64,000 nt of DNA. It comes from an uncultured Acidobacteriota bacterium. GTDB lineage: Bacteria > Acidobacteriota > Blastocatellia > RBC074. Every line of letters starts with the position of its first letter. The first letter of the stretch is position 1. The stretch spans positions 160,001-224,000 of the forward strand of contig CAWCKY010000002.1 of the NCBI GenBank assembly GCA_963796275.1, in the 5' to 3' direction. Positions 3,719 to 36,231 of this stretch are shown here, one piece after another. A program made the position numbers and the translations under genes. The notes beneath the pieces were generated by a model. The model searched no databases and was not told the origin of the DNA. It saw only the letters and a list, made by a program, of their open reading frames with translations.

Positions 3719-3768
3719 AGTAAGAACAATTCAAGGTCTTTATTGAAGCAGCCCCGGGTTGGAAATAA

Positions 3769-3873
3769 AACCACGGGGAATACTGGAACACAGGAGAATG
3801 AGGGAAATTCTTTGTCCGATGCTTCTCCGCTCTTTTCACGACCGTTTCCGTGTTCCCCGTGTTCCTCGTGGTT
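3769..3873. repeat. Inverted repeat built of 9-bp units (CACGGGGAA / TTCCCCGTG)
   Basis: aaccacggggaatactggaacacaggagaa ... tttccgtgttccccgtgttcctcgtggtt. Confidence 0.65.
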
Positions 3874-3874
3874 G

Positions 3875-4398: not shown

Positions 4399-4497
4399 CT
4401 CGGTCTTGAAACCGAGAGCGCTGCCACCCTTCGCGGTAATTTCCTTGACGAGGGCATCGATCCGATCCTTCCGTCTCGCTCCGAGCACGACTGGCGC
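4399..4497 (-). pseudogene. Short-chain dehydrogenase/reductase fragment
   Basis: Manual translation APVVLGARRKDRIDALVKEITAKGGSALGFKTE resembles an SDR beta2-alpha segment. Confidence 0.55.
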
Positions 4498-4617
4498 GGG
4501 CTCAGCCCAAAAAGGACTAGTTTAAAAGATTTCGACTCCGGGTTTTACTATAGCTTGTTGTCGCTTGTCTTCACCGACGACGGCAGTCGAGTCATCTCCT
4601 TGTCTCCTTGTTTTTTT

Positions 4618-5738
4618 TCAAATCGGTTGCGCCATCACATCCAGCATCTTTCTGATCAACCCCGGTCGGTCGGCATCGGGGGTCGAGTGCATCTCCCATT
4701 CGCCGAGTTGGAGCGAACCTTCGACAATGAATTTGCAGCGCTCGTAGCGGCGCCGCATAAATTGTCGAGCAAGTCCGCCAGCGGCTCATCGCGCGGGAGC
4801 AATTCGCCCAGCACCACGCCGTCTTCAACGGCTTGCGCGGCCCCCTGCCCCAGATGCGGCGTGGTTGAATGTGCGGCGTCGCCGATCAACAGCACGCGGC
4901 CCCGGTACCAGGGCGCGGGCATGAGCAGGGTTTTGAGTGGACGATAGATGACTAAAGACGAATCCGTGATTTGATCTCGCAAATCGGCCATGATTCCGGT
5001 GCAGGGGGCGAGGCGTTCCCGAAAAATCTCCGCGAGCCGATCCGAGGGATGACTTGGGTTACCGGGTTCGGCCTGCACCAGCAGCACATAGCCCGTATCC
5101 CGCGAGAGCGGGATGAAGCCGCAGGTGCCGCCTTCCAGCCCCGCACACAAAAAGGCGTAATCGATCACCTCCGGACGCCGCACGTTGTAACGCCACACCC
5201 CCTGACCGGTGAATCGGGGCTGAGGCTGATCGCCGAAGATTGTGCCGCGGACCTCGGAGTACAGGCCATCCGCGCCGATCACCAGATCGTATTCGCCGAT
5301 GACTCCGTCAGTGAAGGCCACCATCACGTTCTTCTCGTTCTGCCGGATTTCAGCGAAGGTGACGCCGATCCTGACCTTCGTTCCGGCCCCAATCGCCGCT
5401 TCCGAAAGGATCCGGTGCAGGGCCGGACGCGCCAAACCGAGATCGGTCGGATACTGCGGCCCCGCCATCGGGATGCCCGGAATCTCCGCCACCGTTTGCC
5501 CGTCCAACGTTTTAATTTTCAAGCCGGAATACGGGAAGCCAGCGGCGACGACTTGATCCGCAATGCCGAGCGCCGCCATGGCGCGGATGAAATTGCCTTG
5601 CACGACGATGCCGACGTGATAGACCTTCCATTCGGCCTTGATTTCGACGAGGTCCACGCTGATTCCCGCCCGACGCAGCGCAATAGCAGTGGACAAGCCT
5701 CCGATACCGCCGCCGACGATAAGAACTTTTTTGACCAT
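4618..5738 (-). CDS. FAD-dependent aromatic monooxygenase (UbiH/salicylate-hydroxylase-like), frameshifted near 4760
   Basis: GGGIGG, DG (GADGLYS) and GD (IGDAAH...GQGA) motifs are present. A natural-looking C-terminus FMRRRYERCKFIVEGS...MAQPI* continues in another frame to 4618. Confidence 0.8.
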
Positions 5739-5754
5739 GGCATTTCACCTTTTG

Positions 5755-5865
5755 TGGCCACCAGATCATGGTTGCCGAAGCGGCACTTCCATTCGCGCGG
5801 CACCCAGTTTTCATCCGGATAATTGCTGTTGGTGCCGTACTCGGCCTCGGCCCGGCCGGTCCCAA
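5755..5865 (-). pseudogene. Possible C-terminal remnant of a VOC/extradiol dioxygenase
   Basis: Manual translation AEAEYGTNSNYPDENWVPREWKCRFG lies directly upstream of the monooxygenase. Confidence 0.35.
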
Positions 5866-6858
5866 GAATAATCGATCTTGACTGAATCCAGAGTTTCAGC
5901 CATCCATTATGTTCGATTCTACTTTGAAATCGGCTGTATCCGTAACTGAGTTAGCTTATCAATGAGGACAAATATTTCTCATCTCATCGACAACATTAGG
6001 CCTTGAAGACGGGTTCCACAGCTAATTGGATATGTCGTGAATTTGGCAGTTGAGCAAACTCATCAACAACTTAAAGACGGTTTCCTCACATCTAATTCGA
6101 CCTGATTTCAAAGCTGAAGTGACACGTGTCTATTGGCGAAAACCTATCATTTGTCATCGATCAATTGCGTTATCACCACGGGTGGTGCTCCAATAGAGAT
6201 GTTGCGTCGATATATTGAGGAACAAGCTGTACCAGAGGATTAATGGCGGGCGAAGCGCCCTCGATACAAAATTCATCTCCAGCCAAGCTCGCAAAGATGC
6301 ACGCTACGGATGGAGTATTCTTTCGCGAACTTCAGATAAAAAAGCGAGAAATCAGGATACTTTAAGGAGTTTGGAGAAACATAACCATGCAATCAGTTCT
6401 CATTCGATTCTGCAAGATTTGAGCGTCGTATCAGCCAAGAGCCGCCCGTGTGGCGGAATTACTCAGGCGTGAGTTAGGAGTACAACCGGAATTAATCGAA
6501 GGCGACCGCGGTGAGTTCAGCGTCTGGGTAGGCAATCAGATAGTAGCCAAAAAGAGGTGGCTGAGATTTCCATCGGACAAGAAGGTACTTACAGCGGTGC
6601 GGCAATCCATCGCGGGTTAGACTCGTCAGCGTCAGTACTATCTAAATATCGGAGAATTGTACGATCAGTTTCCTGAAACCCGTGGTATACAAGACCTGGA
6701 GAGTTGGGAGCAAGATCATTCATTAATAATAGAGTGATAAGGATCGCTCCCTGAACCTTGGAGATGTGTGTAGGCTGCTCAGCAACTCAAAATACCATCA
6801 AGGTACACAGAAAACCTAACACACCGACAACACGTTTAAGCTATTTGGAGGACGGCTT

Positions 6859-7308
6859 ATGGCAATACCTACTAGCGAAATTGCTGTTGCAGATAGGTTG
6901 GCCATTGAAAAGAACGCTAAAAGCGTGCTGGACCGAGTTTGTTCAGGTGCAGCCCTTGATCCGCATTATCGTTATGACAGCCCAAACTTTGTCGATCACG
7001 TCAACGATTTGCAGTTTTATGGGCTCGAAGCAAATCCGGGAAAATTTATACGAGCGTTGTGCTTCGCCAAAACCCCATCCGGCTTGTATTTCAATAACTT
7101 TCGTCAAGCTGTGATGAAGTCCACCAATATTTCTCGATCACTGCCCCCAACTCCGGCGGCTGCTCTACTTTCGGCTCAGGTGCATCCTTGGCGAGCGATA
7201 AATCTTCGTATACTGCCGAGAGAGCCGACTGAGAAGTCGATTGATTTCTTCATTTTCGGAATTGTGGGGAGGGACAACTACCGGGTGCATATATCAAGAT
7301 TCTGGTAA
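6859..7308 (+). pseudogene. Possible SnoaL/ester-cyclase-like N-terminal fragment
   Basis: GGAGG RBS and SPNFVDHVN motif are present; the sequence degenerates after about 58 aa. Confidence 0.3.
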
Positions 7309-7376
7309 AATGTAAAAGGAAGGCTGGTTTCGACTAGCTCCGCTTGAGGACACGTTTCCACTAAGGAGGGAACACA

Positions 7377-7706
7377 ATGACCTTTCTACTATGGTTGCTC
7401 TTTACTGCGCTGGCAGTCGGCATTCCGCCGGGCCTCATCGCGCGACAGCTCACCAAAGGCCGAGGCCAGCGCGTGGAGATTCCCGGAAAAGCAGTAACCT
7501 GGGGCGTAGGCTCCTTTTTGCTGGTATACCTCGCCGTCACAGTACCTTGGCTGGTAATAAGCTGGACTGGTATCATCGACGCGCCCTGGCTGATTACAGG
7601 GCTTATTCTGGGCACCCCGGCTTCAGCCTGGGCCAGTAAGAAATGGTACCGCTCTTTTAAAGACGGTAACCTGATGGGAAGTGTAAGCAATAGATATCTT
7701 CCGTAA
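7377..7706 (+). CDS. Small membrane protein, about 3 TM helices
   Basis: AAGGAGG RBS and three hydrophobic segments. Confidence 0.55.
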   Translation: MTFLLWLLFTALAVGIPPGLIARQLTKGRGQRVEIPGKAVTWGVGSFLLVYLAVTVPWLVISWTGIIDAPWLITGLILGTPASAWASKKWYRSFKDGNLMGSVSNRYLP

Positions 7707-8034
7707 TCACAACGCCCCAGTTCGCACGATGCAAAATGCCTCGTAACGACTGCCACCAAAAATACAATATACTTCCCGACTTTCCCGATCATCGGCGCCC
7801 TCCTCCTCTTCGACCACAGGAAGTACGCCCGGCAAGCGGCCCTCGAATCAGAGCACGCGCATCTCATTTGGGAACCCATCGTTGCCCCGAATACGACGTC
7901 ATCGAGCTGCGCCAATTGCTCGAGCAAAATGGCAAATGCTTGCCCCGGATCCAAGTCGCACTATTTTTAGAAGTAAAGATTTTGTATATCTTGCATGTGA
8001 TTGATGTAGTGCGCGGCGCTCACAGTTGAATGCC

Positions 8035-8997
8035 ATGAACGAGGAACTCAACTCTGTCTGTAACTTCGCCACGGGGCTGCGATTCGAGCCTTACGGCATT
8101 GACCATCTGGTGGATGCCATTGGCCATCACCGCCTGCCGCTGGACCCGGAGTTTCCTTTCACCATCAAAGCCTTCTTCTACGAATCCTTCTCGCCCGGCG
8201 AACGGCTGACCTGGCACAACCGGCTGGAACTTTTCTGTCCCGTCAGCGGCTCCGGCAGCTTTCAGATGGGCGAGCGAGTCATTGACTTCAAGAACGGCGA
8301 TCTGCTGGTGGTGGACAATTTGAAGCTGCACGGCGCGCGCAGTTTTGCAGGCCCACGGAGCCAGGCGGCGGTCATCTACTTCCGGGGGGAATTGTTTTAT
8401 AATCTCGGCTCGGCTGTTTGCGATTACGCTTATCTGACGCCGTTCTACGGCCTGTCCGAAACGATTTCTCCGGTGCTACGCGCCGCTGATCCTGCAGCAG
8501 CGGCAGTCCACGAGGCCTTAGGCAAAATGATCCGCTGTTATTTCGAGGCTCCCGCCGACCAGTATTCGCGTATCGGCTGCAAAGCCTATCTGTCGGAAAT
8601 CCTCTACCTGTTGTCGAAGCATTTCGGCGCGTCGGATCTGGCGCGGGCTGAATACGTGCGCCGCCGTGAACAGGCGCGGCGGCTGGGTGCGCTGGTGGAA
8701 TACCTGAACACCAACTATGCTGAAAAGATTGCCGTCCCGCAGGCTGCGGCAATGGTCGGCATGAGCCAATCCACATTCAACCGCTTTTTCAAGCAAGCCG
8801 CCGGAATGACCTTCGTGGATTACCTGACGCATTTGCGCGTGACCAAAGCTCGCCAGATGTTACGCGACCAGAGCCTGAGCATCGCCGAAATTTCCAACCT
8901 GGTGGGCTACACCGATCAGAGCTATTTCGATAAACGCTTCAAGGAACATTTCGGTAAATCGCCGCGCGAATGCCGGGAAATGACAAAATCGTCGTAG
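8035..8997 (+). CDS. AraC-family transcriptional regulator with cupin sensor domain
   Basis: C-terminal AraC signature (SIAEISNLVGYTDQSYFDKRFKEHFGKSP) and an N-terminal cupin (WHNRLEL). Confidence 0.9.
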   Translation: MNEELNSVCNFATGLRFEPYGIDHLVDAIGHHRLPLDPEFPFTIKAFFYESFSPGERLTWHNRLELFCPVSGSGSFQMGERVIDFKNGDLLVVDNLKLHGARSFAGPRSQAAVIYFRGELFYNLGSAVCDYAYLTPFYGLSETISPVLRAADPAAAAVHEALGKMIRCYFEAPADQYSRIGCKAYLSEILYLLSKHFGASDLARAEYVRRREQARRLGALVEYLNTNYAEKIAVPQAAAMVGMSQSTFNRFFKQAAGMTFVDYLTHLRVTKARQMLRDQSLSIAEISNLVGYTDQSYFDKRFKEHFGKSPRECREMTKSS

Positions 8998-9172
8998 AAA
9001 AAAGCAAAATCTTTCTAGCCGCGATTGCCTCTCGCCCTCAATACTCGGCCTCATCAAAAATGCGCAGCGAATTCGCAAGCGTCAGCTGGCGCGCATAAAT
9101 TCCGCATGCGCATCTCTCGAACTGTCAGCGGCAGTTGCGGCTGAACCAAGCAAACCTGAATAGGAGATAACC

Positions 9173-12100
9173 ATGAGTATCAGAATCGCCGCAGTCCATC
9201 GGCTTGTCGCCGTTCTTTACGCACTCTGCCTACTCGCTTCGCTCGCATGGGCGCAATCCACCGGCGGCGCGCAGCTTTCCGGCACGGTGCTGGACGAAAG
9301 CGGCGGTGCCGTCGCGGGCGCGGAAGTCACGGTCACGCAAACCGCCACCGGGGGCTCGCGCACCGTCACGACCGATGCCGACGGGAGCTATACCTTCCCC
9401 AATCTGCCGGTCGGGCCCTATCAATTGCAGGTCAGGAAGCAGGGCTTCAGCGCTCACCTGCAAACTGGCATTGTTTTGCAGGTCAACGTCAACCCGACGA
9501 TCAATGCGACGCTCAAAGTCGGCGCGGTGACGGAACAGGTGCAGGTGACTTCGGATGCCGCGCTGGTCGAAACGCATAGCAACGGCGTAGGCCAGGTGAT
9601 TGATCAGCAGCGCGTTGTCGAATTGCCGCTCAACGGGCGGGTGGCGACCGAATTGATTTTCCTTTCGGGCCTGGCGACGGCGGCTCCGGTGGGGGATTTG
9701 AATACGAATAAAAACTATCCGACCGTCACCATCTCAGTCGCGGGCGGACTGGCGAACGGGATGACGTATGTGATGGACGGCGGCACGCATAACGACCCGT
9801 TCAATAACCTCAATCTGCCGATGCCCTTCCCTGACGCCTTGCAAGAATTCAAGGCCGAGACCAGCGCCCTGCCGGCGCGCTACGGCCATCATGCCGCGTC
9901 GACCGTCAACATCGTCACTAAATCGGGGACGAATAAATTTCATGGCGACTTGTTCGAGTTCGTGCGCAATTACAAATTCAACGCGCGGAACTTCTTTGCC
10001 GCGCAACGCGATAGTCTGAAACGCAATCAGTTCGGCGGGACGCTGGGCGGCCCGATCAGACAGAACAAGCTGTTTTTCTTCGGCGGCTATCAGGGGAAGA
10101 TAGAGAAATCGAATCCGGGCACGACCATCAGTTATGCGCCGACGGCGGCGATGCGCGCGGGTGATTTCACGGCATTCGCGTCGGCGGCCTGCAACGGCGG
10201 CGCGGCGCGCACGCTGGCTGCGCCCTTCGTCGACAACAGGCTCGATCAGTCGATGATCAATCAGCAGTCCTTGAACTTTTTGAACTACGTGCCCACGCCG
10301 ACCGACGCTTGCGGCAGGTTGCAATACGGCATTCTTGCCAACAACAACGAGCATCAGGCGATCGGCAAAATTGACTATTCGCTCAACGACAGGCACACGT
10401 TGTTCGGTCGTTACTTCTTTGCCGATTATGCCAGTCCCAATCCGTTTGACGGCGTGAACGTATTAGCCATGAGCCGCGTCGCCCAATTCAATCGTGCGCA
10501 TTCATTCGTGCTGGGCGATACCTATCTGCTCAGCGCAAACACGATCCTCTCGACGCGCGCGACGCTCAACCGCACGCGCAATCTTCGCGTAGTTGATCCG
10601 TACTTTTCGCCCGCCGATCTGGGTATTCAGGTCTACAGCCCGGTCACAGGTTTCACCGGCTTCACGGTCACTGGCAACGGATTTGCGATTGGCGCTGTCG
10701 CGACAAATCCCGGCTATTTCAATTCGACGAATTATCAGCTTGCCGAAGACGTTGATCTGATTCGTGGCTCGCATCAGATATCCCTGGGCGTAAATTTCAT
10801 TCACAACAACATCAACACCTCGAACAATCGACCGACCAATGGGCAATTTACTTTCAACGGCCAGGTGACGGGCTTGCCGATGGCGGATTTCATGGCGGGC
10901 ATTCTAAGCGGCGGGTTCTTGCAGGGCAATCCGATCTTTGACAACCAACGGCAGAATTACATCGGCGTTTACGTGCAGGATTCGTGGAAGCTGAATCCTC
11001 GGCTGACGATCAACGGAGGCGTACGCTGGGAGCCCTACCTGCCGATGGAACATCCATTCGGCTGGGTGAGCCACTTCGATCAGGCGGCTTTCGTCGCGGG
11101 CGCAAAGAGCGCGGTCTATAAAAACGCGCCAGCCGGATTGCGCTTCCCCGGCGACGCCGGCTATCCGGGGAAGTCGACAACATTCTCGCGCAAAGCGCAA
11201 TTTGCGCCGCGTCTGGGACTGGTCTTCGATCCGAAAGGCGACGGCAAGATGACGGTGCGCGCATCCTACGGCATTTTCTATGACAACCCGCATCTATTCT
11301 TCAACACGCGTTTTGCGAACAATCCGCCATGGGGCGCGCAGATCACACTCACTAATCCGGCGGGCGGTTTGACCAACCCCTATCAAACATACCCCGGCGG
11401 CAATCCTTTCCCCGGGCTGGCCAATATCTCCGCGGACAGCTTCTTCCCTTTGGCGGGGGTTTATGTCAACGCGCCGCTCGAGATCAAGCCGACTTACCTG
11501 CAGCAGTGGAATCTGAGCGTGCAGCGCCAGGTCGGCGAATGGCTTTTTGCGGGCACCTATCTCGGCAACAAATCCACGCACCTATGGACGGGACGCGAAG
11601 CGAACCCGGCGGTCTTCGGTGCGGGGGCGACGCTGGGCAATACCAATCAACGCCGCGTGCTTTCCCTGCTGAATCAAATGCAGGGGCAGTATTACGGCAC
11701 CATCGGACAGATTGATGACGGCGGCACGTCGAGTTACAACGGCATGCTGCTGTCGGCGCAGCGCCGCCTGGCGAACAGCTTCAGCGTGCTGGCGAATTAC
11801 ACTCTGTCGCATTGCATCAGCGATCCGGCGACGACCGAAATCACCGGCCCGACATACGTCAATCCCAACAATCGCCGCGCTGACCGGGCGAATTGCGATT
11901 CGGACCGGCGCCACGTCGTCAATCTTTCGTTTGTCGCGCGCACGCCGCGATTTGCTAATCGCGCGCTGAACCTGATCGCTTCGGGCTGGCAGCTTTCGGG
12001 CATCGTGCGCCGGCAAAGCGGGAACTATTCAACAGTCATGACCGGCGTGGACAACGCGCTCACAGGCGTCGTCGGCCAACGCGCTGTGCAGCTGCTGGCC

Positions 12101-12418
12101 GTTCCTTACGACGCGAGCCCGACAGTGGATCATTATTTGAATCGTGCGGCGTTCGGTTCACCCACGATGGGAACGTATAGCTCGCTCGGCGCATTCACGA
12201 TTGTGAATCCGAGCACCCTGCAGATTGATACGGGACTGTCGCGCACCTTCCGCGTGTTCGAAGGGCAAAGCATTCAGTTCCGTTGGGAACTCTTCAACGT
12301 CCCGAACCGGCTGAATGCGAATGCGCCGGTTACCGCACTGAACGATGCGAACTTCGGCAGGATTCTGAGCGCGCAAGACCCGCGTATTATGCAGTTTGCG
12401 CTGAAGTACGTGTTTTAG
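9173..12418 (+). CDS. TonB-dependent receptor, Oar/Cna-B type with carboxypeptidase-regulatory-like N-domain
   Basis: Signal peptide, LPLNGR, DALQEFK, KSGTNKFHG, FAPRLG, and C-terminal QFALKYVF. Confidence 0.9.
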   Translation: MSIRIAAVHRLVAVLYALCLLASLAWAQSTGGAQLSGTVLDESGGAVAGAEVTVTQTATGGSRTVTTDADGSYTFPNLPVGPYQLQVRKQGFSAHLQTGIVLQVNVNPTINATLKVGAVTEQVQVTSDAALVETHSNGVGQVIDQQRVVELPLNGRVATELIFLSGLATAAPVGDLNTNKNYPTVTISVAGGLANGMTYVMDGGTHNDPFNNLNLPMPFPDALQEFKAETSALPARYGHHAASTVNIVTKSGTNKFHGDLFEFVRNYKFNARNFFAAQRDSLKRNQFGGTLGGPIRQNKLFFFGGYQGKIEKSNPGTTISYAPTAAMRAGDFTAFASAACNGGAARTLAAPFVDNRLDQSMINQQSLNFLNYVPTPTDACGRLQYGILANNNEHQAIGKIDYSLNDRHTLFGRYFFADYASPNPFDGVNVLAMSRVAQFNRAHSFVLGDTYLLSANTILSTRATLNRTRNLRVVDPYFSPADLGIQVYSPVTGFTGFTVTGNGFAIGAVATNPGYFNSTNYQLAEDVDLIRGSHQISLGVNFIHNNINTSNNRPTNGQFTFNGQVTGLPMADFMAGILSGGFLQGNPIFDNQRQNYIGVYVQDSWKLNPRLTINGGVRWEPYLPMEHPFGWVSHFDQAAFVAGAKSAVYKNAPAGLRFPGDAGYPGKSTTFSRKAQFAPRLGLVFDPKGDGKMTVRASYGIFYDNPHLFFNTRFANNPPWGAQITLTNPAGGLTNPYQTYPGGNPFPGLANISADSFFPLAGVYVNAPLEIKPTYLQQWNLSVQRQVGEWLFAGTYLGNKSTHLWTGREANPAVFGAGATLGNTNQRRVLSLLNQMQGQYYGTIGQIDDGGTSSYNGMLLSAQRRLANSFSVLANYTLSHCISDPATTEITGPTYVNPNNRRADRANCDSDRRHVVNLSFVARTPRFANRALNLIASGWQLSGIVRRQSGNYSTVMTGVDNALTGVVGQRAVQLLAVPYDASPTVDHYLNRAAFGSPTMGTYSSLGAFTIVNPSTLQIDTGLSRTFRVFEGQSIQFRWELFNVPNRLNANAPVTALNDANFGRILSAQDPRIMQFALKYVF

Positions 12419-12428
12419 TTCGCACCGC

Positions 12429-12511
12429 ATCAGTATCGCGAGCAGTGGCGAGCGTGGCTCCTGCAAAAGGCTACTAACGGAAGCCACGTTCGCCGAGCTC
12501 GCGGTACTGAT
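12429..12511. repeat. REP-like long imperfect palindrome
   Basis: atcagtatcgcgagc..ggcgagcgtggct ... agccacgttcgcc..gctcgcggtactgat. Confidence 0.7.
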
Positions 12512-12531
12512 TCACTGCTTCATTCAAACCT

Positions 12532-13419
12532 ATGTCGACTCAACACAACCGCGAAGCCATTGCCGACGCCACCAACCCGTTGGGGCTGGACGGCATCGAG
12601 TACATCGAATATGCGACCAGCAAGCCGCAGGCCCTGGGGCAGGTTCTGGAGATGATGGGCTTTCGTCCGATCGCGCAGCATCGTTCCCGCGAAGTAATGC
12701 TTTATCGGCAAGGCCGGATGAACGTCATAGTCAACGCCCATGTAAGCGCCTTGCCGCGTGCCGTGCAGCCGGTTGAAACACCTGCGATTTCGGCGCTGGC
12801 CTTGCGCGTGCGTTCGGCAGCGGCGGCCTATCATCACGTCATTGAAAAAGGCGCATGGGCCGCGCCGACGCACGTGGAAGTGATGGAATTGAACATCCCC
12901 GCGATTCACGGAGCAGGCAACAGCCGCATCTATTTTGTTGATCGTTACCACGATTTTTCAATCTACGACGTTGATTTCACACTGATCCCGACCGTCGATC
13001 CGCATCCGACTGCGCTTGCGGGAATGCATTTGTTCGGCATCGTGCAATACATCGGTACGGAGCGAATGGAAGATTGGACGGAGTTTTATACGATGCTCTT
13101 TGCTTTCCAACTATTGCCGGACAACGAACGCTTCGGCATTCTGCACCAAGGCCGAGTCCTGCGCAGTCCCTGCGGTTCGTTTTACCTGCAACTGATCGGC
13201 CCCGATTCTGATATCGGCAACGTGGAGGGGGACGAATTACTGCAGCGGGTCGGCTTCGGCGTGCCCGACGTGCCCGACGCCATCGCCGCCTTGCGCGCGC
13301 GCGGCATCAGCTTCGTCTCCGCCAGCGACCACCAGACAAACGCACACGGCGCGTTGACTCAAAGTTATCTGGGCGGCTTGATGTTCGAGATTGTTCACGA
13401 CGAGCGTAACGGCATATGA
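12532..13419 (+). CDS. 4-hydroxyphenylpyruvate dioxygenase-like VOC protein (Fe ligands apparently lost)
   Basis: NPLGLDGIEYIEYA and MELNIPAIHGAG.SRIYFVDRY match the HppD N-domain. The His ligand positions read FG and QR. Confidence 0.75.
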   Translation: MSTQHNREAIADATNPLGLDGIEYIEYATSKPQALGQVLEMMGFRPIAQHRSREVMLYRQGRMNVIVNAHVSALPRAVQPVETPAISALALRVRSAAAAYHHVIEKGAWAAPTHVEVMELNIPAIHGAGNSRIYFVDRYHDFSIYDVDFTLIPTVDPHPTALAGMHLFGIVQYIGTERMEDWTEFYTMLFAFQLLPDNERFGILHQGRVLRSPCGSFYLQLIGPDSDIGNVEGDELLQRVGFGVPDVPDAIAALRARGISFVSASDHQTNAHGALTQSYLGGLMFEIVHDERNGI

Positions 13420-14327
13420 AACAGTTCAGCAGCAGCATCGACGATTTTGGGATGGATACAATTACGCTCACCGGGCCATTGCCCGCCAAGTTACAGGCTG
13501 TGCGCGCTGCCGGGTTCTCCCAAATCATGTTGCTGGCGCGCGATATTGTGGGCCACGATGCGGGCGTCGAAGCGGCTATCCGCGCCGTGCGCGAAAGCGG
13601 TTTGCGCGTGACGGGCTTTCAGGTGCTGCGCGATTTTGAAGGGCTGTCCGGCCACTTGCACGAATACAAAATTGATGTAGCGAAATCCATGCTGGAAATG
13701 TGCGGGGCGCTCGGCGCGCGCGTGTTGCTGGTCTGTTCATCGATTTCGACCCACGCGACGGACGACCGAGATGCGCTCGCGCGCGATTTGCGCAAGCTGG
13801 CGATGCTGGCCGTGCCGCTCGGCATCAGGATCGCTTACGAAGGATTGTCGTGGGGGCGCACGATCAACGAATTTCATGACGCCTGGGATATCGTTTGCCG
13901 CGCAAACGCGCCGAATCTCGGCATTGGGATTGATTCGTTTCACATCTTCGCCACGAAAACGCCGCTCGATAAGCTGGATGCGCTCGACCCGAAAAAGATT
14001 TTCCTCGTGCAGTTGGCCGATTTTATGTGGAACGAAATTCGTTCGGTCGAGGAGCGCATCACCACGGCGCGCCACTTCCGCGTCTTTCCCGGCGAAGGCG
14101 TGCATAGCGATCAAGTTGCCGAGTTAGTGATGCGTCTTGACAAACTGGGCTATCGCGGCGATTACAGCTTCGAGGTCTTCAACGACGATTACCAGCAAAT
14201 GCCGATGGACCGCGTCTGCGCGCGCGCCTTCCGCGCGGCGGAATGGTTGGGTGAAGATGTGCTGCGACGCTCCGTGCCGCTGCCCAATCGCATGCGGCTC
14301 AAATCCAGTGAACCGTTATCCCCTTAA
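13416..14327 (+). CDS. Sugar-phosphate isomerase/AP-endonuclease-2 TIM barrel, probable 3-dehydroshikimate dehydratase (QuiC1 N-domain-like)
   Basis: FQVLRDFEG, AYEGLSWG, DSFH, LVQLAD, RHFRVFPGEG and SFEVFND motifs; the ATG overlaps the upstream stop. Confidence 0.75.
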   Translation: MKQFSSSIDDFGMDTITLTGPLPAKLQAVRAAGFSQIMLLARDIVGHDAGVEAAIRAVRESGLRVTGFQVLRDFEGLSGHLHEYKIDVAKSMLEMCGALGARVLLVCSSISTHATDDRDALARDLRKLAMLAVPLGIRIAYEGLSWGRTINEFHDAWDIVCRANAPNLGIGIDSFHIFATKTPLDKLDALDPKKIFLVQLADFMWNEIRSVEERITTARHFRVFPGEGVHSDQVAELVMRLDKLGYRGDYSFEVFNDDYQQMPMDRVCARAFRAAEWLGEDVLRRSVPLPNRMRLKSSEPLSP

Positions 14328-14473
14328 AGAAAGAAGGCAAAGGAGTCAAAACCTAGCTGCTCATTGTTCCTGACGTCGGGGGCAAGGTTACCCGAAGCTA
14401 CTCACGCCGATACTGATCAGGCGCTCAAGAAAACGCTCGAATTCATCGAGGCCATTGAGGGAGGGATGGCGAA

Positions 14474-16390
14474 ATGAAACGACGGCTTTTATTGTTGGTT
14501 ATTGCTATCGGCTTGTTGCTCCCGTCCGTGCGGGGACAGAAGAGAACGGCAACCGACTGGCCGACTTTCGGCAATGATCACGGCGGACAGCGTTACGCTC
14601 CGCTAACGCAGATCAACGCCGACAACGTAACGAAGCTCGTGCGCGCGTGGACATATCACATGAAACCCGCCGGCGCCGCGCCGCCCATCGCCGAAAGCCG
14701 CCCATCCGCGCGCGGCCCGCGTCGCCGCGGCAATCCAGAATCGCAAGCCGTGCCGCTAGTGGTCAACGGTGTGATGTATCTGACGACGGCTTATCGCCGC
14801 GTCGTCGCGCTCGAACCCGAAACGGGCAAGTGCCTGTGGGAATACATGCTCAAGAGCGGCTCGCCTGCCACGCGAGGTTTGGAGTACTGGGCGGGGGATG
14901 CGCAAACGCCGCCGCGCTTGTTCTTCGGCACGTCCAACGGCGAACTGATCGCACTCGATGCCAGGACGGGACAGCCTGCGACGAGCTTCGGCGCGGGCGG
15001 CATCGTGGATATGAAAATCGGGGTGATGAATGGTTACGATCAGATTCCTTATGGTCTGTCGTCGCCGCCGATTATGTACAAAAGCCTCGTGATCACGGGC
15101 GCGCATACACAGGAGTCACCGATGCTGGGTTCTTCGGGCGACGTGCGCGCTTGGGATGCGCGGACGGGCAAGCTGGTCTGGACGTTTCACACAGTGCCGC
15201 GTCCAGGCGAAGCGGGGCACGGGACATGGGAAGGCGACAGTTGGAAAGACCGTTCCGGCGCGAATGTCTGGAGTATGATGACCGTTGACGTAGCGCGCGG
15301 CCTGGTTTTTCTGCCGCTCGGTTCGCCGACATACGATTATTACGGCGGCGACCGCAAAGGCGCGAACCTTTACGGCGACACGCTGGTTGCGCTCGATGCC
15401 AACACCGGCCAAATGAAATGGCATTTCCAAGCCGTGCATCATGACTTGTGGGATTATGATCTTTGCACGCCGCCAACTTTGTTTGATGCCACGGTCAAAG
15501 GCCGAAAGATTCCGGCTGTGGCGGTGATGTCGAAAATGGGTCTGCTCTTCATTCTGGATCGCAGCGACGGCAATCCGATTTATGGCATCGAGGAAAGACC
15601 GATTCCAAAAACTGACGTGCCTGGCGAAGCGAGCTGGCCCACGCAACCCTTTCCGCTCAAGCCAGCGGCGCTCGCGCGCAACAGCTTCAAGCGCGAAGAA
15701 CTCGCCAATCTGACGCCTGAACACCGCAAATATTGCGAAGCAATGTTCGACCGCGACGGGGGCATGCACAACGAAGGGCCGTACACGCATTACACTACCA
15801 AACCTTCGGTCGTCTTCCCCGGCACGCTCGGCGGCGGCAATTGGAATCCGATGTCGTTCGATCCGAAGCTGGGCTACCTGTTCATCAACACACAGGATTT
15901 GGGCGGCATCGGACAGATGCAGCGGAATCTTGAAGGTGGGCGCACGCCGTGGTCACGCACGAGTCCGCTGGGGCCGGCCGGCCGATTCTGGAATCCCGAT
16001 ACGCGCTGGCCTTGCCAGCAACCGCCCTGGGGCAGATTGTTCGCGGTCAATGTCAATACCGGCGAAATCGTCTGGCAAGCCGTGTTGGGAATTACGGAAG
16101 GATTGCCTGAGGACCAGCAAAAAACCGGCAGGCCGAATATCGGCGGCTCGCTCGCCACGGCCAGCGGATTGGTCTTCATCGGTGCGACCGATGACAGCCG
16201 CTTCCGTGCCTTCGACGCCAAGACCGGGAAGGAATTATGGGTGACGAAAATTGACGCGGGCGCGCATTCCGCGCCGATCACATACTATGGTAGAGACGGC
16301 AAGCAATACGTGGTGATTACGGCAACCGGTGGCGGCTTCATCGCAGACCCTTCAAGCGCCGACACGGTGATTGCGTTTGCCTTGCCGTAA
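14474..16390 (+). CDS. Periplasmic PQQ-dependent dehydrogenase (glucose/quinate/shikimate family, no membrane anchor)
   Basis: Signal peptide, QRYAPLTQIN, HHDLWDYD, PTQPFP, GGGNW, PCQQPPWG and GKQYVV motifs. Confidence 0.85.
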   Translation: MKRRLLLLVIAIGLLLPSVRGQKRTATDWPTFGNDHGGQRYAPLTQINADNVTKLVRAWTYHMKPAGAAPPIAESRPSARGPRRRGNPESQAVPLVVNGVMYLTTAYRRVVALEPETGKCLWEYMLKSGSPATRGLEYWAGDAQTPPRLFFGTSNGELIALDARTGQPATSFGAGGIVDMKIGVMNGYDQIPYGLSSPPIMYKSLVITGAHTQESPMLGSSGDVRAWDARTGKLVWTFHTVPRPGEAGHGTWEGDSWKDRSGANVWSMMTVDVARGLVFLPLGSPTYDYYGGDRKGANLYGDTLVALDANTGQMKWHFQAVHHDLWDYDLCTPPTLFDATVKGRKIPAVAVMSKMGLLFILDRSDGNPIYGIEERPIPKTDVPGEASWPTQPFPLKPAALARNSFKREELANLTPEHRKYCEAMFDRDGGMHNEGPYTHYTTKPSVVFPGTLGGGNWNPMSFDPKLGYLFINTQDLGGIGQMQRNLEGGRTPWSRTSPLGPAGRFWNPDTRWPCQQPPWGRLFAVNVNTGEIVWQAVLGITEGLPEDQQKTGRPNIGGSLATASGLVFIGATDDSRFRAFDAKTGKELWVTKIDAGAHSAPITYYGRDGKQYVVITATGGGFIADPSSADTVIAFALP

Positions 16391-16413
16391 CCTCTGACTT
16401 TCAAAGACCCATT

Positions 16414-16989
16414 ATGAACTCTATCAGAATTCTTCTGCTCGCGGCGTTACTCGGCATGCCGATGCTCGCTTCCGATGTTCAATCAAAGATGCAAAACAAC
16501 CAAAATGCGCGGTTGAAAATCCTGGTCGTTCACGGCCCGAATCTGAACCTGCTCGGAAGGCGCGAGCCGAATATTTACGGCGTGACGACGCTACCGCAAA
16601 TCAACGAGCAGTTGCAGAAACTGGCGGCGGAACTGAATGTCGAGCTGATCATCGTGCAATCCAATCACGAAGGCGTCATCGTGGACACGTTCCAACAACA
16701 CATTGATGATGTGGCCGGCGCGATTATCAACCCGGCAGGGCTGAGCTTTCACAGTGTTGCATTGCACGACGTCATCAAAGCGGTGCCGTTTCCAGTGATC
16801 GAAACGCACATCTCTAACCTCGGCACGCGTGATGCGATCCACCAGGGTTCGATCATCACGCCCGCGGCGCGGGCTTCGATTATGGGGCTGGGCTGGCGAT
16901 CTTACACGGCGGGCTTGCGCGCGCTGGTCGAGCTTGTACGCGAAGAAAAAAACGCCAAGGAAGTGGGAAAAGAAGGGAGTAAGAAGTGA
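16414..16989 (+). CDS. aroQ: Type II 3-dehydroquinate dehydratase with predicted signal peptide
   Basis: HGPNLNLLGRREPNIYG, QSNHEG, INPA and ETHISN motifs. N-terminal extension is MNSIRILLLAALLGMPMLA. Confidence 0.85.
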   Translation: MNSIRILLLAALLGMPMLASDVQSKMQNNQNARLKILVVHGPNLNLLGRREPNIYGVTTLPQINEQLQKLAAELNVELIIVQSNHEGVIVDTFQQHIDDVAGAIINPAGLSFHSVALHDVIKAVPFPVIETHISNLGTRDAIHQGSIITPAARASIMGLGWRSYTAGLRALVELVREEKNAKEVGKEGSKK

Positions 16990-17846
16990 TGCGTTACCTG
17001 ATTTGTCTGTTTGCGATTGTTTTACTGTTCAGCCTGTCGCCGGCGCAATCGGCCCAACAAGCTCCGCCGCAACGTCGGCCACAGCCGCGTCCTACGCGCA
17101 AACAGGTGTTGGCGTGGGGCGATGTGCGTTACGGCTTCCAACACGATTCCGTCTCGCACGCGATGGCTACGATTGAACGTCTGGGCCGCGAATCGGGTAT
17201 GTACGATACGTACATCCGCACCGATTCGCAGCTCATCACGAAACAGCCGATTATAACGGGTGGCCGTCCCAGCAATGCCAAAAATCTGAATTACTTCGAC
17301 GCTATCTTCTTTTTCGGGCTGCGCGAAATTGAGCTGAGCGCCCAGCAAAAGGTCGACCTGATGACTTTCATCAAAGAGGACGGCAAGGGATTCGTCGGCG
17401 CGCACACGGCGACGACCGCGTTTTTCTCGTGGCCGGAGTTCGGCGAAATGATCGGCGCGCGCTTTGACGAACATCCCTGGAATGTCATTGACGGAAGCGT
17501 CGTGATTGACGACCCGCTGTTTCCCGCCATGAAGCATTTCCCCGGCGTTTCGGTCATCAAGGACGAGCATTACCAGCACAAGGATTTTGCGCGCGATAAA
17601 ATCCGCGTGCTGGCGCATCTGGATGTGAGCAATTTGGATATGAAAAATCCTCGCGTCCATCGAACCGACGGCGACTATCCCGTCGCCTGGTCGAAGATGC
17701 ACGGCAAAGGCCGCGTCTTTTACGCCACGCTCGGACACGCGCCGGAAAGCTGGGACAACCCGCAAATCCAGAAAATGTATTTCGAGGCGCTCAAATGGGC
17801 CATGGGCTTGAGCGAAGGTGAGACCACACCGCTCCCGGGAAAGTGA
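16989..17846 (+). CDS. Secreted ThuA-domain (class I glutamine amidotransferase-like) protein
   Basis: Signal peptide, FQHDS, GKGFVGAH, FDEHP, DEHY and GKGRVFYATLGH motifs. Confidence 0.8.
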   Translation: MRYLICLFAIVLLFSLSPAQSAQQAPPQRRPQPRPTRKQVLAWGDVRYGFQHDSVSHAMATIERLGRESGMYDTYIRTDSQLITKQPIITGGRPSNAKNLNYFDAIFFFGLREIELSAQQKVDLMTFIKEDGKGFVGAHTATTAFFSWPEFGEMIGARFDEHPWNVIDGSVVIDDPLFPAMKHFPGVSVIKDEHYQHKDFARDKIRVLAHLDVSNLDMKNPRVHRTDGDYPVAWSKMHGKGRVFYATLGHAPESWDNPQIQKMYFEALKWAMGLSEGETTPLPGK

Positions 17847-18334
17847 TGCGTAAGGTCATCAAAATTGCCTTAGCGGCAATCGCCATCTCCGTCGGAATTC
17901 TGGCGCAAACGCCCGAAACGCCGAAGCAGCCGCTACCATTCAGCCACAAGCTGCACGTCGCGCAGGGGCTGAATTGCCAAACCTGCCACGTCAATCCCGA
18001 CCCCGGCGAACAGATGGCCTTTCCGGCGACGGCCGAATGCATGACCTGTCACGCCGAGATCGCCACGGACAAAGCCGCGATCCAGGAACTCGCCAAATAT
18101 CATCAGGACAAAGCCGCTATCCCGTGGGTGCGGATTTATCAAAACCCCGACTGGGTCTGGTTCAGTCACCGCGTACATTTGGAGGCGGGTGCGAAATGTG
18201 AGCGCTGTCACGGCGCGGTCGCCGAGCGCGACGCGCTCTGGAAAGAGAAGCCACTCACGATGGAAAGCTGCATGAATTGCCACCGCGAAACCAACGCCAG
18301 CAACGCATGCAATTATTGCCATCAAGCGCATTGA
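17846..18334 (+). CDS. Periplasmic pentaheme cytochrome c (c3/c7-like, ActA paralogue)
   Basis: Five CxxCH motifs (CQTCH, CMTCH, CERCH, CMNCH, CNYCH), QPLPFSHKLH and a signal peptide. Confidence 0.85.
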   Translation: MRKVIKIALAAIAISVGILAQTPETPKQPLPFSHKLHVAQGLNCQTCHVNPDPGEQMAFPATAECMTCHAEIATDKAAIQELAKYHQDKAAIPWVRIYQNPDWVWFSHRVHLEAGAKCERCHGAVAERDALWKEKPLTMESCMNCHRETNASNACNYCHQAH

Positions 18335-18343
18335 AGTCGTGGT

Positions 18344-19201
18344 ATGGAAAAACACTTTCCCAAATCGTTGCAGGTTGGTTTAATCGGCGCAGGCATTCAG
18401 GCTTCGCGCTCGCCACATCTCCACGAATGCGAGGCCCGCGCGGCAGGCATCGTCTGCTCCTATCGATTGATCGATCTGGTGCAACTCGGCGTCGGCGTCG
18501 AATCCTTGCCGCAGCTGCTGGACGCTGTCCAGCAGCAGGGATTCGCCGGAGTCAATATCACACATCCCTGCAAACAATCGGTCATTCCGCTGCTAGACGA
18601 ACTGTCGGAGGATGCCACCATCATCGGTGCGGTCAACACGGTGGTTTTTTCCGCAGGCAAACGAATCGGGCACAATACCGATTGCTGGGGGTTTGCCGAA
18701 AGTTTCCGGCGAGGCCTTGCCGATGTTGCACGCAACCAAGTAGTCCTGCTCGGCGCGGGCGGCGCGGGATCCGCCGTAGCCAGCGCCGCACTACAAGTCG
18801 GTGTCACAAGGTTGGTGATTCACGATGTGATTTATTCGCGCGCCATTGCGCTTGCCGAACGATTGCGCCCACGTTTTGGCGCGGATCGCATCGCCATCGT
18901 CACTGACCTCTCGTCGGCAATGGCCGCGGCTGATGGATTGATTCAAGCGACACCCATCGGTATGCTCGGCCATCCTGGATTGCCGTTGCCCATTGAATTG
19001 CTGCGGCCTGCACATTGGGTCGCCGAGATCATTTACTTTCCGCTCGAGACAGAATTGCTGAAGTTAGCGCGCCTGCTGGGTTGCCGCACACTGGACGGTA
19101 GCGGAATGGTTGTCTTTCAGGCCGCCGAAGCGTTCCGCCTATTTACTGGCGTGGCGCCGGATTACGAAAGGATGCTGAGATGTTTCGCCATCCTGAGCTA
19201 A
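18344..19201 (+). CDS. aroE: Shikimate/quinate dehydrogenase (AroE/YdiB family)
   Basis: SRSP.LH, GVNITHPCK, GAVNTV, GHNTD, LLGAGGAG, ATPIGM and GMVVFQA motifs. Confidence 0.9.
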   Translation: MEKHFPKSLQVGLIGAGIQASRSPHLHECEARAAGIVCSYRLIDLVQLGVGVESLPQLLDAVQQQGFAGVNITHPCKQSVIPLLDELSEDATIIGAVNTVVFSAGKRIGHNTDCWGFAESFRRGLADVARNQVVLLGAGGAGSAVASAALQVGVTRLVIHDVIYSRAIALAERLRPRFGADRIAIVTDLSSAMAAADGLIQATPIGMLGHPGLPLPIELLRPAHWVAEIIYFPLETELLKLARLLGCRTLDGSGMVVFQAAEAFRLFTGVAPDYERMLRCFAILS

Positions 19202-19249
19202 TCACGGCCGTAGAACAAATAAAGTATGGGCTTCCGGACAGCATTAAGT

Positions 19250-19281
19250 CCAGGTGTGGAGCGCAAAGCGCTCCCACCTGG
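19250..19281. terminator. Hairpin between convergent genes
   Basis: ccaggtgtggagcgc-aaa-gcgctcccacctgg. Confidence 0.5.
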
Positions 19282-19314
19282 CTGTTATCTGTGCGACCCG
19301 CTGGGGGCTCGTCG

Positions 19315-21537
19315 CTAACGATAACGAAGGTTACCAACTTTTGTAATGAAAGCATCATCGGAGACGCCTCGAAGTTCCTTCTGAAAAGCCTCCGGCGTAG
19401 TCGGGAAGTCGGCCGAGCTTGTGCTCCCAACTACATAGGCATTCCCACGAATATCCAATGCAATTCCCTGCCCGAATTCCGAGGCGCTCCCGCCCAGGTG
19501 TGTGGAATAGACAAAACCATATCCATCGTCCTTCAACTTGCTCACGAAAGCATTTAGAGATGGTGTGACCGGAGCAGGCTGTACGGGATTGAGAGTCGGG
19601 AAGTCATTCGAATTAGTCGAACCTATGACGTAGGCGTTGCCTCGCGCATCCACCGCTATGCCTGTTCCACCATCGAGGAGGCTTCCACCTAGATAGGTAG
19701 AGTAGTGAATTTTCGTTCCAGATTGATCTATCTTGGCCACGAAGGCATCGTTGCCACCGGCCAAAGATGGTTGCCAGGGATTCATTGTGGGAAAATTGGT
19801 TGAACTGGTGGTCCCAGTAACATAAACATTACCACGAGCGTCCAAGGCGAGGCCATTCCCTATATCCGCGCCGTTACCTCCGAAGTAGGTTGAATAGATG
19901 AAGGCCGTGCCGCTGACGTCCAGCTTCGTCACGAAGGCATCTCCCCCTCGAATAAACTCTGAGTCGGCGAGCCTGGGCTGCAGCGGATCGGCGGTCGGGA
20001 AATCCATGGAAAAGGTCCCACCCACCAGATAGATGTTGCCGCTGCGATCTACCGCGATGTCACTGCCGAGATCGGCATCGCTGCCTCCGAGGTAGGTCGA
20101 GTAGACGAGCGCCGAACCCGCAGAGTTCAACTTGGTCACGAATGCATCCTGGGAGTTTGCGCGAGCCGGTTGCAGAGGATTCATCGTCGGGAAGTCGATC
20201 GACAGGGTAGAACCAGTCAGGTAGACGTTCCCCTGCCTATCAATCGCCAGGCCCAGACCTCGTTCTATTGAGCTGCCTCCCAGATAGGTCGAATAGATGA
20301 GCGCTGACCCGACAGGGTTCAACTTGGTTACAAAGACGTCTACAGCGCCTGAGAGAGCCGGTTGCAGAGGATTCATCGTCGGGAAATCGCCCGAGGCAGT
20401 ATAACCGGTCAGATAGGCATTTCCTTCCCGGTCAACCTCAATGTCAAGACCCTCTTCGCTGCCGTTGCCCCCGAGATAGGTCGAGTAGACCAGCGCCGAC
20501 CCATTCGCGTTGAGTTTGGTCACAAAAACATCAGAAGCCAGGCCCCCGCCGGGAGCCGGCTGTAGAGGATCGGCTGTCGGGAAGTCCGGTGAAAAGGTAA
20601 GCCCGCTGACATAGGCATTTCCGGCGGCATCGACGGCAACCCCCTGAGCGACATCAGACGCGGTGCCTCCGAGGTAGGTGGAGTAGCCCAGGACAGGATC
20701 GATCACCAGTGACTGGGCCGTATCATAAGCAGCCACCTCGAATCCGACATGTTGCCCTCCTCTCAGCACATAACGGCTGAGTATCTCCCGTCTACGGCCA
20801 TTCATTTCCTGATAGGTCACAGGTTTGCGCTGACGCAGCTCACCGCCCTCTATGTGCAGGATGAGATCACCTTGCCCATCCACCTCCATCCGGTCCGCCC
20901 CATCAAAGGTGAGCGTGATGGCATTGGGATCGGCGCCGGGCGATACGACGAAGTCATACTCGAGTTGCTGCTGGTTGCCATAGTAGATCAGATCGATTCC
21001 GGGATAGACACTACTGTAACGCACCTGTGCATAGTTCGTAACATTCCTGCGCCATCGGCTCGGATCGTTGCCGATGAAATAGTTGCTCTTACCCGGAAGC
21101 GCATCCACCCCTTCGATATGCGGTGCAGAGTTGGCGCCGGTGAGCTTCATTCGGACCACCGATCGCAGATCGGCACAGCTCACCGCTCTTTCACTTCGTA
21201 GCGCCAGTACGGCCTCGGTTGGAGTCAGAAACAGGTTGTAGCCATTGCCGCGGGAGAAAAATTTAACCCGCGCATCAGTCTGGCCCGCATTGGCTTCGAA
21301 CCTCATGGGCAGGTTGCCGTATGCCTCAGTCGTGCGAGCCCTGGACTGTTGATCGGCACCTGACAACGGTGTGCGGAAACTATATTTTTCGGTATTCACT
21401 GTAGGGGCAACGGAGAATCGGTCAGGCGCCCCTGACCGGCGCCAGGCAAATGCCGGTCCTGCCGGAAGATGGAAAAGGCCAATCATGATCAGAGTGAGCG
21501 TGATTATCCGCCGAACGGAATTTCCCGAAAGTTGCAT
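19315..21537 (-). CDS. Secreted SBBP (beta-propeller repeat) protein
   Basis: FEANAGQTD and LVIDPVL.YSTYLGG, then about seven YSTYLGG...IAVD..GNAYV.G.T.S.DFPT repeats. AGGAG RBS precedes ATG 21537. Confidence 0.85.
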   Translation of the reverse strand: MQLSGNSVRRIITLTLIMIGLFHLPAGPAFAWRRSGAPDRFSVAPTVNTEKYSFRTPLSGADQQSRARTTEAYGNLPMRFEANAGQTDARVKFFSRGNGYNLFLTPTEAVLALRSERAVSCADLRSVVRMKLTGANSAPHIEGVDALPGKSNYFIGNDPSRWRRNVTNYAQVRYSSVYPGIDLIYYGNQQQLEYDFVVSPGADPNAITLTFDGADRMEVDGQGDLILHIEGGELRQRKPVTYQEMNGRRREILSRYVLRGGQHVGFEVAAYDTAQSLVIDPVLGYSTYLGGTASDVAQGVAVDAAGNAYVSGLTFSPDFPTADPLQPAPGGGLASDVFVTKLNANGSALVYSTYLGGNGSEEGLDIEVDREGNAYLTGYTASGDFPTMNPLQPALSGAVDVFVTKLNPVGSALIYSTYLGGSSIERGLGLAIDRQGNVYLTGSTLSIDFPTMNPLQPARANSQDAFVTKLNSAGSALVYSTYLGGSDADLGSDIAVDRSGNIYLVGGTFSMDFPTADPLQPRLADSEFIRGGDAFVTKLDVSGTAFIYSTYFGGNGADIGNGLALDARGNVYVTGTTSSTNFPTMNPWQPSLAGGNDAFVAKIDQSGTKIHYSTYLGGSLLDGGTGIAVDARGNAYVIGSTNSNDFPTLNPVQPAPVTPSLNAFVSKLKDDGYGFVYSTHLGGSASEFGQGIALDIRGNAYVVGSTSSADFPTTPEAFQKELRGVSDDAFITKVGNLRYR

Positions 21538-22043
21538 GAAACGTCTCCTATTGTAGATGGGAAAACCTAAACCAACGCACACCGGACCGATACAGTGGTG
21601 ATTGACCGAAGATCGACATTCACCAGACTACCTGCGCCGATCTGCAAGATCAGCGTCGATCCGAGGTTTCACCGACATTCAACTATCTTCAGATGTACCA
21701 ATCCATGGTGTTCTAATTTAGGTTCAAAAAGGGGTATTCATTGGCATAAAGTTGCTGACTGAGGATGGATATTACCATGAGGTAAAATATTCTGGCATTT
21801 CTAAACCTGATACCATAGCCCGGCATTAGTTCTAAATGGTTTTCAAAAGAACGTCACACTTCATCCCTGCCCTTCGCCAAAATTCGTTTTTGCCCTGGCG
21901 ACATCTCTTTTTCTTCAGTATTTTTTGTCACCCTGGAATAGAATGAAACATGACTGAGCTGATTATAAACGTCTTCGGATTAATCGGTTCATTAAAACTT
22001 CACATTGGCTTTGACGTTGGAAGTGCCGGTACAACTAAGCTGA

Positions 22044-35385: not shown

Positions 35386-35386
35386 C

Positions 35387-36201: not shown

Positions 36202-36231
36202 AGACTACAACTCTGTCTCGCCACTACTTGA

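Follow-up and report, generated by a model that had tools for sequence, protein, structure and literature searches.

What would an apparently exported type II dehydroquinase be doing among genes for the breakdown of quinate and shikimate? The question is raised by a nine-gene locus at 8035–19201 of a 64,000-nucleotide stretch from an uncultured Acidobacteriota bacterium (contig CAWCKY010000002.1, positions 160,001–224,000; the whole stretch is called the window below). The genes encode, in order, an AraC-family regulator, an outer-membrane barrel, a protein with the fold of 4-hydroxyphenylpyruvate dioxygenase (HPPD; the gene is called HppD-like), a TIM-barrel protein (TIM), a pyrroloquinoline quinone (PQQ) dehydrogenase, the dehydroquinase (AroQ*), a ThuA-like protein, a pentaheme cytochrome, and a quinate/shikimate dehydrogenase (SDH). 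We read the whole as a catabolic locus under AraC control that was drawn from two sources and serves plant acids of the quinate/shikimate type, and in which quinate would be turned into dehydroquinate and then dehydroshikimate in the periplasm and into protocatechuate in the cytoplasm; we judge this reading about equally likely to be right or wrong. Judging from sequence, the locus is probably a mosaic of a betaproteobacterial-like cytoplasmic quinate/shikimate cassette and an acidobacterial exported module. This organization is less surprising than an initial annotation of the same DNA supposed, and the notable part is a clade of apparently exported AroQ proteins with a changed C5 pocket.

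The nine open reading frames (ORFs) all lie on the plus strand, with the coordinates and common orientation already given in the initial annotation (Table 1). The overlapping stop and start codons that it described were found at three of the eight junctions (4 bases each); the remaining gaps are 175, 113, 146, 23, and 9 bases, the last separating the end of the cytochrome gene from the start of SDH. Export was judged by a hydropathy proxy, the best 9-residue stretch near the N terminus, and not by a dedicated signal-peptide predictor. Values were 2.7–3.5 for the barrel, PQQ enzyme, AroQ*, ThuA, and cytochrome, and 0.8–1.6 for AraC, HppD-like, TIM, and SDH, which have no hydrophobic N terminus. 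By this proxy, the claimed export of the middle products was borne out.

The cytoplasmic genes provide the first ground for the catabolic reading. The closest solved relative of SDH is the quinate/shikimate dehydrogenase of Corynebacterium glutamicum (3jyo, E = 7e-76; the next unrelated entry has 7e-40), and SDH is 60% identical to a Ralstonia gene annotated qsuD. TIM aligns with the N-terminal half of Pseudomonas putida QuiC1 (5hmq) and keeps nine of the 10 QuiC1 active-site residues given in PMC7442255. The exception is Ser206, which is Ala218 in TIM and alanine in 119 of 120 TIM homologs. The same article reports that the isolated N-terminal domain of Corynebacterium QsuB is active. QuiC1 and QsuB are fused TIM + HPPD chains, whereas the pair here is made of two ORFs in reversed order, and its HPPD half lacks the iron histidines.

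The initial annotation had called this half an HppD-like gene. Its fold (PF14696) agrees with that name, but alignments show both iron-histidine positions replaced and only the glutamate kept (the iron triad of HPPD being, we take it, His/His/Glu), and the TIGR01263 score is 91 against a cut-off of 277. Because the histidines are lost, we rejected a working dioxygenase; in a split QuiC-type dehydratase, it would probably be the half without catalytic function. Each of the three plasmid loci that we opened (Vitreoscilla, Massilia, and Azoarcus) has the HppD-like + TIM pair in the same order, together with genes for an SDH and a dehydroquinase. HppD-like is 58% identical to its Vitreoscilla and 54% to its Massilia counterpart, and TIM is 43%–66% identical to its counterparts in betaproteobacterial clusters with the split pair. 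These clusters, known from automatic annotation, differ from our locus in having cytoplasmic dehydroquinases and TRAP, MFS, or porin uptake. In Massilia, a membrane PQQ dehydrogenase lies ∼4 kb off, across the origin of the circular record, and so offers a precedent for a set comprising a PQQ dehydrogenase, SDH, AroQ, a dehydroshikimate dehydratase, and an outer-membrane channel. Proteins named Rhizobacter, Sphaerotilaceae, and Burkholderiaceae share 78%–79% identity with TIM, which suggests, on identity rather than on a tree, transfer from Betaproteobacteria. The nearest relative of SDH, the TIM active site, and the three-for-three company of the pair support the catabolic reading, and with them the earlier assignment of the cytoplasmic genes to quinate/shikimate metabolism holds.

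The second ground is AroQ* itself, in which catalytic residues and fold are kept, together with the presence of C5-variant AroQs in qui-type clusters elsewhere. In type II dehydroquinases, catalysis is by Arg19, Tyr24, Asp88′, and His101; Asn75 and Ser103 hold the carboxylate and C1 hydroxyl; and His81 and Arg112 bind the C5 hydroxyl, Arg112 also helping to make the catalytic tyrosine more acidic (lower pKa; PMC6011038). We mapped AroQ* onto this numbering through an alignment with the Helicobacter pylori enzyme. Among the 120 best homologs, the catalytic positions R50, Y55, D119, and H132 are kept in 120, 119, 120, and 120; N106 is found in all 120, S134 in 119, and R139 in 119–120. The C5 ligands, on the other hand, are replaced. 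The His81 position (F112 in AroQ*) is Phe in 110 homologs, Gln in eight, and His in two, and the Arg112 position (H143) is His in 120 of 120, whereas all 78 ordinary AroQs from our genome scan have His81 and Arg112. Arg87 is likewise changed to His. AroQ* thus shares fold and catalytic residues with MtDHQ2 and HpDHQ2 and is unlike them in these three substitutions and in its signal-like N terminus. A hydrophobic N-terminal extension is present in 115 of the 120 homologs, with a sequence that varies at lower identity; since the first 58 are >90% identical, 115 is not a count of independent lineages. The predicted model of this 17-kDa enzyme (pLDDT 78) finds only type II dehydroquinases among its top Foldseek matches. 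Its score with the TIGR01088 equivalog model, 150, falls below the cut-off of 169.85, and two broader subfamily models pass. From these comparisons, AroQ* appears to belong to a distinct type II dehydroquinase clade that is exported and has an altered C5 pocket.

The loss of Arg112, with its part in lowering the tyrosine pKa (PMC6011038), could also mean that AroQ* has little or no dehydroquinase activity and persists as a periplasmic binder or sensor, with shikimate alone being catabolized, by cytoplasmic SDH and TIM. The cluster has no solute-binding protein, which would fit such a role. The three essential residues and the acid histidine are near-invariant, however, which is unexpected for a pure binder, and we regard this explanation as very improbable.

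The changed pocket gives a clue in favor of the initial annotation's guess at a quinate ester, and sequence alone would allow a substrate with a C5 substituent, chlorogenate for example. The substrate would then be a quinate substituted at the future C5 of dehydroquinate, for instance chlorogenate (whose substituted position we presume to match that C5), a 5-O-glycoside, or an ether. It would enter intact, be oxidized at C3 and dehydrated by AroQ*, and the substituent would leave by elimination, with help from ThuA or TIM, to give protocatechuate and an acyl or sugar product with no esterase. We consider this unlikely, though worth weighing. In its favor, the residues that changed are exactly those that bind the C5 hydroxyl in PMC6011038, the replacement of both is near-uniform among the homologs, a large barrel suits a bulky ligand, and no esterase was found among the cluster's Pfam and NCBIfam domain matches. 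On the other side, a histidine lies one place along from F112 (H113, in 117 of 120 homologs), a hydrogen bond to a hydroxyl could still come from H143 and H118, and the available literature on chlorogenate oxidation yielded no such route. Slightly less probable still is the fuller proposal that soil Acidobacteria process 5-O-substituted quinates with a hitherto undescribed clade of exported type II dehydroquinases (that of AroQ*, with its remodelled C5 pocket) by periplasmic oxidation and elimination, without an esterase, with electrons passing from PQQ to a freed ActA-like pentaheme and with ThuA releasing or handling the substituent.

We then looked at where the C5-ligand loss came from. In a tree of 43 AroQ rows that we selected (a 102-row tree was run in quick mode only), AroQ* falls in a 10-row clade (support 100/98) inside a group with Gln81 that includes Cupriavidus and Variovorax proteins and one Terriglobia protein without a signal peptide. 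A separate proteobacterial clade (support 95/87) combines Phe81 with Tyr or His at position 112. Holding AroQ* together with this clade was rejected by the approximately unbiased (AU) test (p = 0.019; 145 columns, with the constrained group named after the quick 102-row tree). By this test, the double C5-ligand loss arose separately in AroQ* and in the proteobacterial quinate clusters, and a loss that arose twice adds to the case for a C5-substituted substrate. The proteobacterial clade comprises L088–L093, L095, L098, L102, L104, and L105 among the loci we inspected, many of them quinate-type clusters. Its enzyme is the only dehydroquinase in the fetched stretches of qui-type clusters L089, L090, L095, L102, and L105, and one Phe81 variant adjoins pca genes. 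These clusters look ordinary and have no extra processing genes, which speaks against a substituted substrate. A similar cluster in Rhizobium phaseoli (L096) has a His81/Arg112 enzyme instead, and the stretch at 35–60 kb of Sinorhizobium meliloti pSymB has an SDH match and no AroQ. The available portion of PMC3333776 does not mention quinate and has no bearing on the rhizobial cluster.

Several findings weigh against the catabolic reading. Since AroQ* does not come from the Phe81 clade, its analogy with those proteobacterial clusters is convergent only. In one cluster of the Massilia putida plasmid (L082, 2262–10876), a fused QuiC accompanies the split HppD-like + TIM pair; the pair may therefore have a substrate of its own and may not be a plain dehydroshikimate dehydratase. 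The PQQ enzyme is no closer to QuiA-type proteins (36%–38% identity) than its fold predicts, and it belongs to a family with many relatives at 60%–68% identity, of which all those named at NCBI are acidobacterial. At E ≤ 1e-3, nothing in the window matched four pca and seven transporter queries taken from related clusters, so by those queries neither an importer nor a pca gene is encoded there. In the Acidobacteriota locus L001, an exported AroQ* is followed by an exported ThuA (73% and 54% identical to those of the window), and none of the other seven cluster genes lies within 10 kb. Two of three contig sizes shared by AroQ* and PQQ homologs lack TIM among the 120 matches listed.

These last two points come from a check of neighborhood conservation that the initial annotation had proposed. 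Our genome scan used the AroQ* alignment with generic patterns, and the matches listed were nearly all ordinary AroQ; only two of 80 loci, L001 and L002 (a stand-alone Gln81 form), were of the variant clades among them, so conservation of the full cluster is poorly sampled. The AroQ* clade is well represented in the protein collection: among the top 120 homologs (at least 67% identity), 113 have contig records, mostly short. AroQ* and PQQ homologs occur on contigs of equal size three times (28,055, 38,194, and 50,656) against 0.07 expected for contigs of at least 5 kb (23 and 85 rows), a linkage read from equal contig size alone and not from gene adjacency. TIM shares only the 50,656 contig size, which places TIM, PQQ, and AroQ* together on one further contig size. 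Partial linkage was thus recovered. From this pattern, the exported core seems to predate its union with the quinate cassette and to be more widespread; that union is present in the window and probably in one other record.

The same pattern is accommodated by a different substrate. The exported module might act on a non-hydroaromatic acid with the group HOOC-C(OH)-CH2-C=O, for instance a 4-keto-ulosonate (of the Kdo, Dha, or sialic-acid type) or else an acyclic 4-hydroxy-2-oxo diacid; in that case the quinate cassette would have been inserted later and would serve some other substrate. We think this improbable, if chemically conceivable: RgNanOx carries out C4 oxidation, elimination, and water addition on an ulosonate (PMC7535918). 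The AroQ*–ThuA pair of L001, which stands without SDH or dehydroshikimate dehydratase, and the betaproteobacterial look of the cytoplasmic genes both favor it. So does the sister Gln81 clade. In L084–L086 and L106 (Cupriavidus and Variovorax), a cytoplasmic Gln81/His87 AroQ sits in an IclR-TRAP operon, and none of the four loci has an SDH or QuiC match within 12–14 kb; the imported compound may therefore itself be the AroQ substrate. Yet the TRAP binding proteins of these operons are 49%–57% identical to one in the Vitreoscilla shikimate cluster. In the window, moreover, hydroaromatic genes, three in all, lie to either side of the module, SDH starting only 9 bases past the cytochrome, and the TIM–PQQ–AroQ* set recurs on the second contig size. 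Neither a glycosidase nor a sialidase is among the cluster's domain matches.

ThuA bears on this alternative too. It adjoins unrelated PQQ enzymes in Variovorax and Ketogulonicigenium and so looks like a general companion of such enzymes, as far as gene order suggests, which would suit a module not tied to quinate. ThuA-PQQ-cupredoxin genes adjoin the Gln81 AroQ operon in two of three Variovorax loci and not in Cupriavidus; the Variovorax ThuA and PQQ proteins are only 29% and 34% identical to those of the window, and this neighborhood, being convergent, offers weak support. One AroQ homolog bears the name Blastocatellia, and the Atlas clusters nearest to AroQ and to ThuA are for the most part from Acidobacteriota, in keeping with an acidobacterial host. 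A predicted complex of an AroQ* trimer with ThuA scored 0.00, from a two-row ThuA alignment, and is given no weight here.

The initial annotation had set a soluble PQQ dehydrogenase beside the membrane-anchored QuiA of known qui pathways. The enzyme is a 638-aa protein without an internal hydrophobic helix; its E91, W266, D327, and K354 align with E217, W404, D466, and K493 of Escherichia coli Gcd, which we take to be the catalytic Asp and Lys and the PQQ-contacting Trp and Glu. Identity to Gcd is 32%, and among the four QuiA-type proteins compared, three are 56%–67% identical to the fourth. We rejected orthology with QuiA on its distance from these four, a TIGR03074 score of 486 against a cut-off of 833, and its lack of an anchor; membership of the acido-empty-quinoprotein family was also rejected (256 against 650). 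The cytochrome shares the pentaheme domain and five hemes of ActA from alternative complex III and of QrcA, and is 32% identical to the window's own ActA (48088–48747). Unlike these, it stands alone with a short export-like N terminus, outside the separate act operon at 48088–55677. On rhizobial plasmids, pentaheme matches also lie close to PQQ genes; the one such case opened was an ordinary ActA within an act operon. Of the domain models that bear on the proposed TonB-receptor role, the barrel passes PF25183 and scores 20.7 with PF00593, below the cut-off of 27. Genome-scan matches to the barrel were confined to Granulicella and Acidisarcina plasmids; two of the Granulicella plasmids have paralogs (35% identity) at 13 and 10 places.

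In the catabolic pathway that we favor, the barrel would bring the acid into the periplasm, where the soluble PQQ enzyme, with ThuA as an accessory, would oxidize the C3 hydroxyl to give 3-dehydroquinate. Electrons would pass through the ActA-like pentaheme to the respiratory chain, and genes for alternative complex III and cytochrome c oxidase are present in the same window. Exported AroQ*, its C5 pocket loosened, would follow the normal type II mechanism in eliminating water at C1, and an importer encoded elsewhere would take in the resulting 3-dehydroshikimate. The split QuiC-like TIM barrel would make protocatechuate, its HPPD-fold partner having a structural role, and shikimate or quinate entering unoxidized would go to the NAD-type dehydrogenase.

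This periplasmic plan is already known: Acinetobacter baylyi turns quinate into protocatechuate in the periplasm (PMC4213383). The locus resembles the Acinetobacter qui pathway in its proposed periplasmic oxidation and dehydration of quinate, and the parts differ. In Acinetobacter baumannii (L100), pcaHG is followed by a type I dehydroquinase with a signal-like N terminus, an OprB porin, and a membrane PQQ enzyme. Our locus has instead a type II dehydroquinase with an altered pocket, a soluble, non-orthologous PQQ enzyme, and a large barrel in place of the porin; ThuA and the pentaheme are added, and the last dehydration appears cytoplasmic (TIM, HppD-like, and SDH). PMC9171043 reviews the oxidation of quinate by acetic acid bacteria. 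Our literature search, whose coverage left out most subscription journals, found no acidobacterial quinate pathway; for periplasmic type II dehydroquinases, rhizobial AroQ, TonB with quinate, ThuA, and chlorogenate oxidation, the portions available contained nothing describing the clade or the combination. The initial annotation did not know the combination as a described system; periplasmic quinate processing as such is not new.

Table 1. Features of the locus, with window coordinates and supporting matches
Feature	Coordinates	Strand	Evidence
AraC-family regulator, probable activator of the cluster	8035..8997	+	PF12833 E 1e-24; ORF open from TTG 8026
Outer-membrane barrel with N-terminal carboxypeptidase-regulatory-like domain, TonB-receptor-like	9173..12418	+	PF25183 650 bits, PF13620
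Long intergenic hairpin, barrel/HppD-like gap	12422..12518		-60.5 kcal/mol, z -7.6, 0/200 shuffles
HPPD-fold protein without the two iron histidines	12532..13419	+	PF14696, alignments
TIM-barrel dehydroshikimate-dehydratase-like protein (QuiC1 N-terminal half, AP_endonuc_2), predicted cytoplasmic	13416..14327	+	5hmq E 3e-44
Soluble PQQ dehydrogenase, predicted exported, glucose/quinate/shikimate fold, no membrane anchor	14474..16390	+	PF01011
Type II dehydroquinase variant AroQ*, predicted exported	16414..16989	+	Catalytic residues kept, C5-hydroxyl ligands replaced
ThuA-like protein, predicted exported	16986..17846	+	PF06283
Soluble pentaheme c-type cytochrome, ActA/QrcA-like; candidate electron acceptor	17843..18334	+	5 CxxCH; 8k9e E 4e-30
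Quinate/shikimate dehydrogenase (SDH), catabolic type, predicted cytoplasmic	18344..19201	+	PRK12549 429 vs cut-off 235

For AraC, no NCBIfam equivalog exceeded its cut-off among the best 25 of 32 matches. The hairpin, presumably REP-like (repetitive extragenic palindromic), stands at the left edge of the betaproteobacterial-like pair; its arm motif occurs six times in the window (1.1 expected), a count that includes the two arms themselves. Rfam had no matches in 3000–23000, promoter and terminator scans gave matches at chance level, and repeats within genes looked like chance. The statement that the window holds no pca, pqq, or inner-membrane transporter gene agreed with our queries and with Pfam, which was run on 59 ORFs (54 of the 103 with at least 120 aa, plus five shorter ones) and showed no pqq synthesis gene. 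Unrelated membrane proteins outside the cluster are a mechanosensitive channel, a FUSC-like, and a MacB-like protein.

Upstream of the locus, 2033–3718 encodes a second, distant PQQ-like beta-propeller (21% identical to the cluster enzyme) after a FecR-domain gene, and 4656–5865 a PRK06847-type FAD monooxygenase whose C terminus appears out of frame near 4745. Low-GC DNA upstream of the latter holds, read by eye, an apparent IS200 transposase remnant (near 6030–6240). Downstream, at 28970–30443, a DUF4118-PAS ORF overlaps a histidine-kinase ORF, probably as one frameshifted sensor kinase. The nuo (complex I) operon with a fused C/D subunit occupies 30462–45066 on the minus strand, and the alternative complex III and cytochrome c oxidase operon spans 48088–60491. 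Its NrfD/ActC gene lies in two overlapping frames (51787–52476 and 52385–53227), reflecting a frameshift or a sequencing error.

Type II dehydroquinases are generally regarded as cytoplasmic enzymes with a single substrate. The AroQ* clade carries the plain annotation aroQ, which would lead genome models to assign it wrongly to the synthesis of aromatic amino acids. The enzyme offers a cheap, direct test of how Acidobacteria use plant quinates, and its locus gives a handle on the unexplained ThuA family and on the large acidobacterial PQQ family. If the substrate were a 5-O-substituted quinate, AroQ* would bring a new substrate class to the type II dehydroquinase fold, and ThuA would gain its first role outside sugars.

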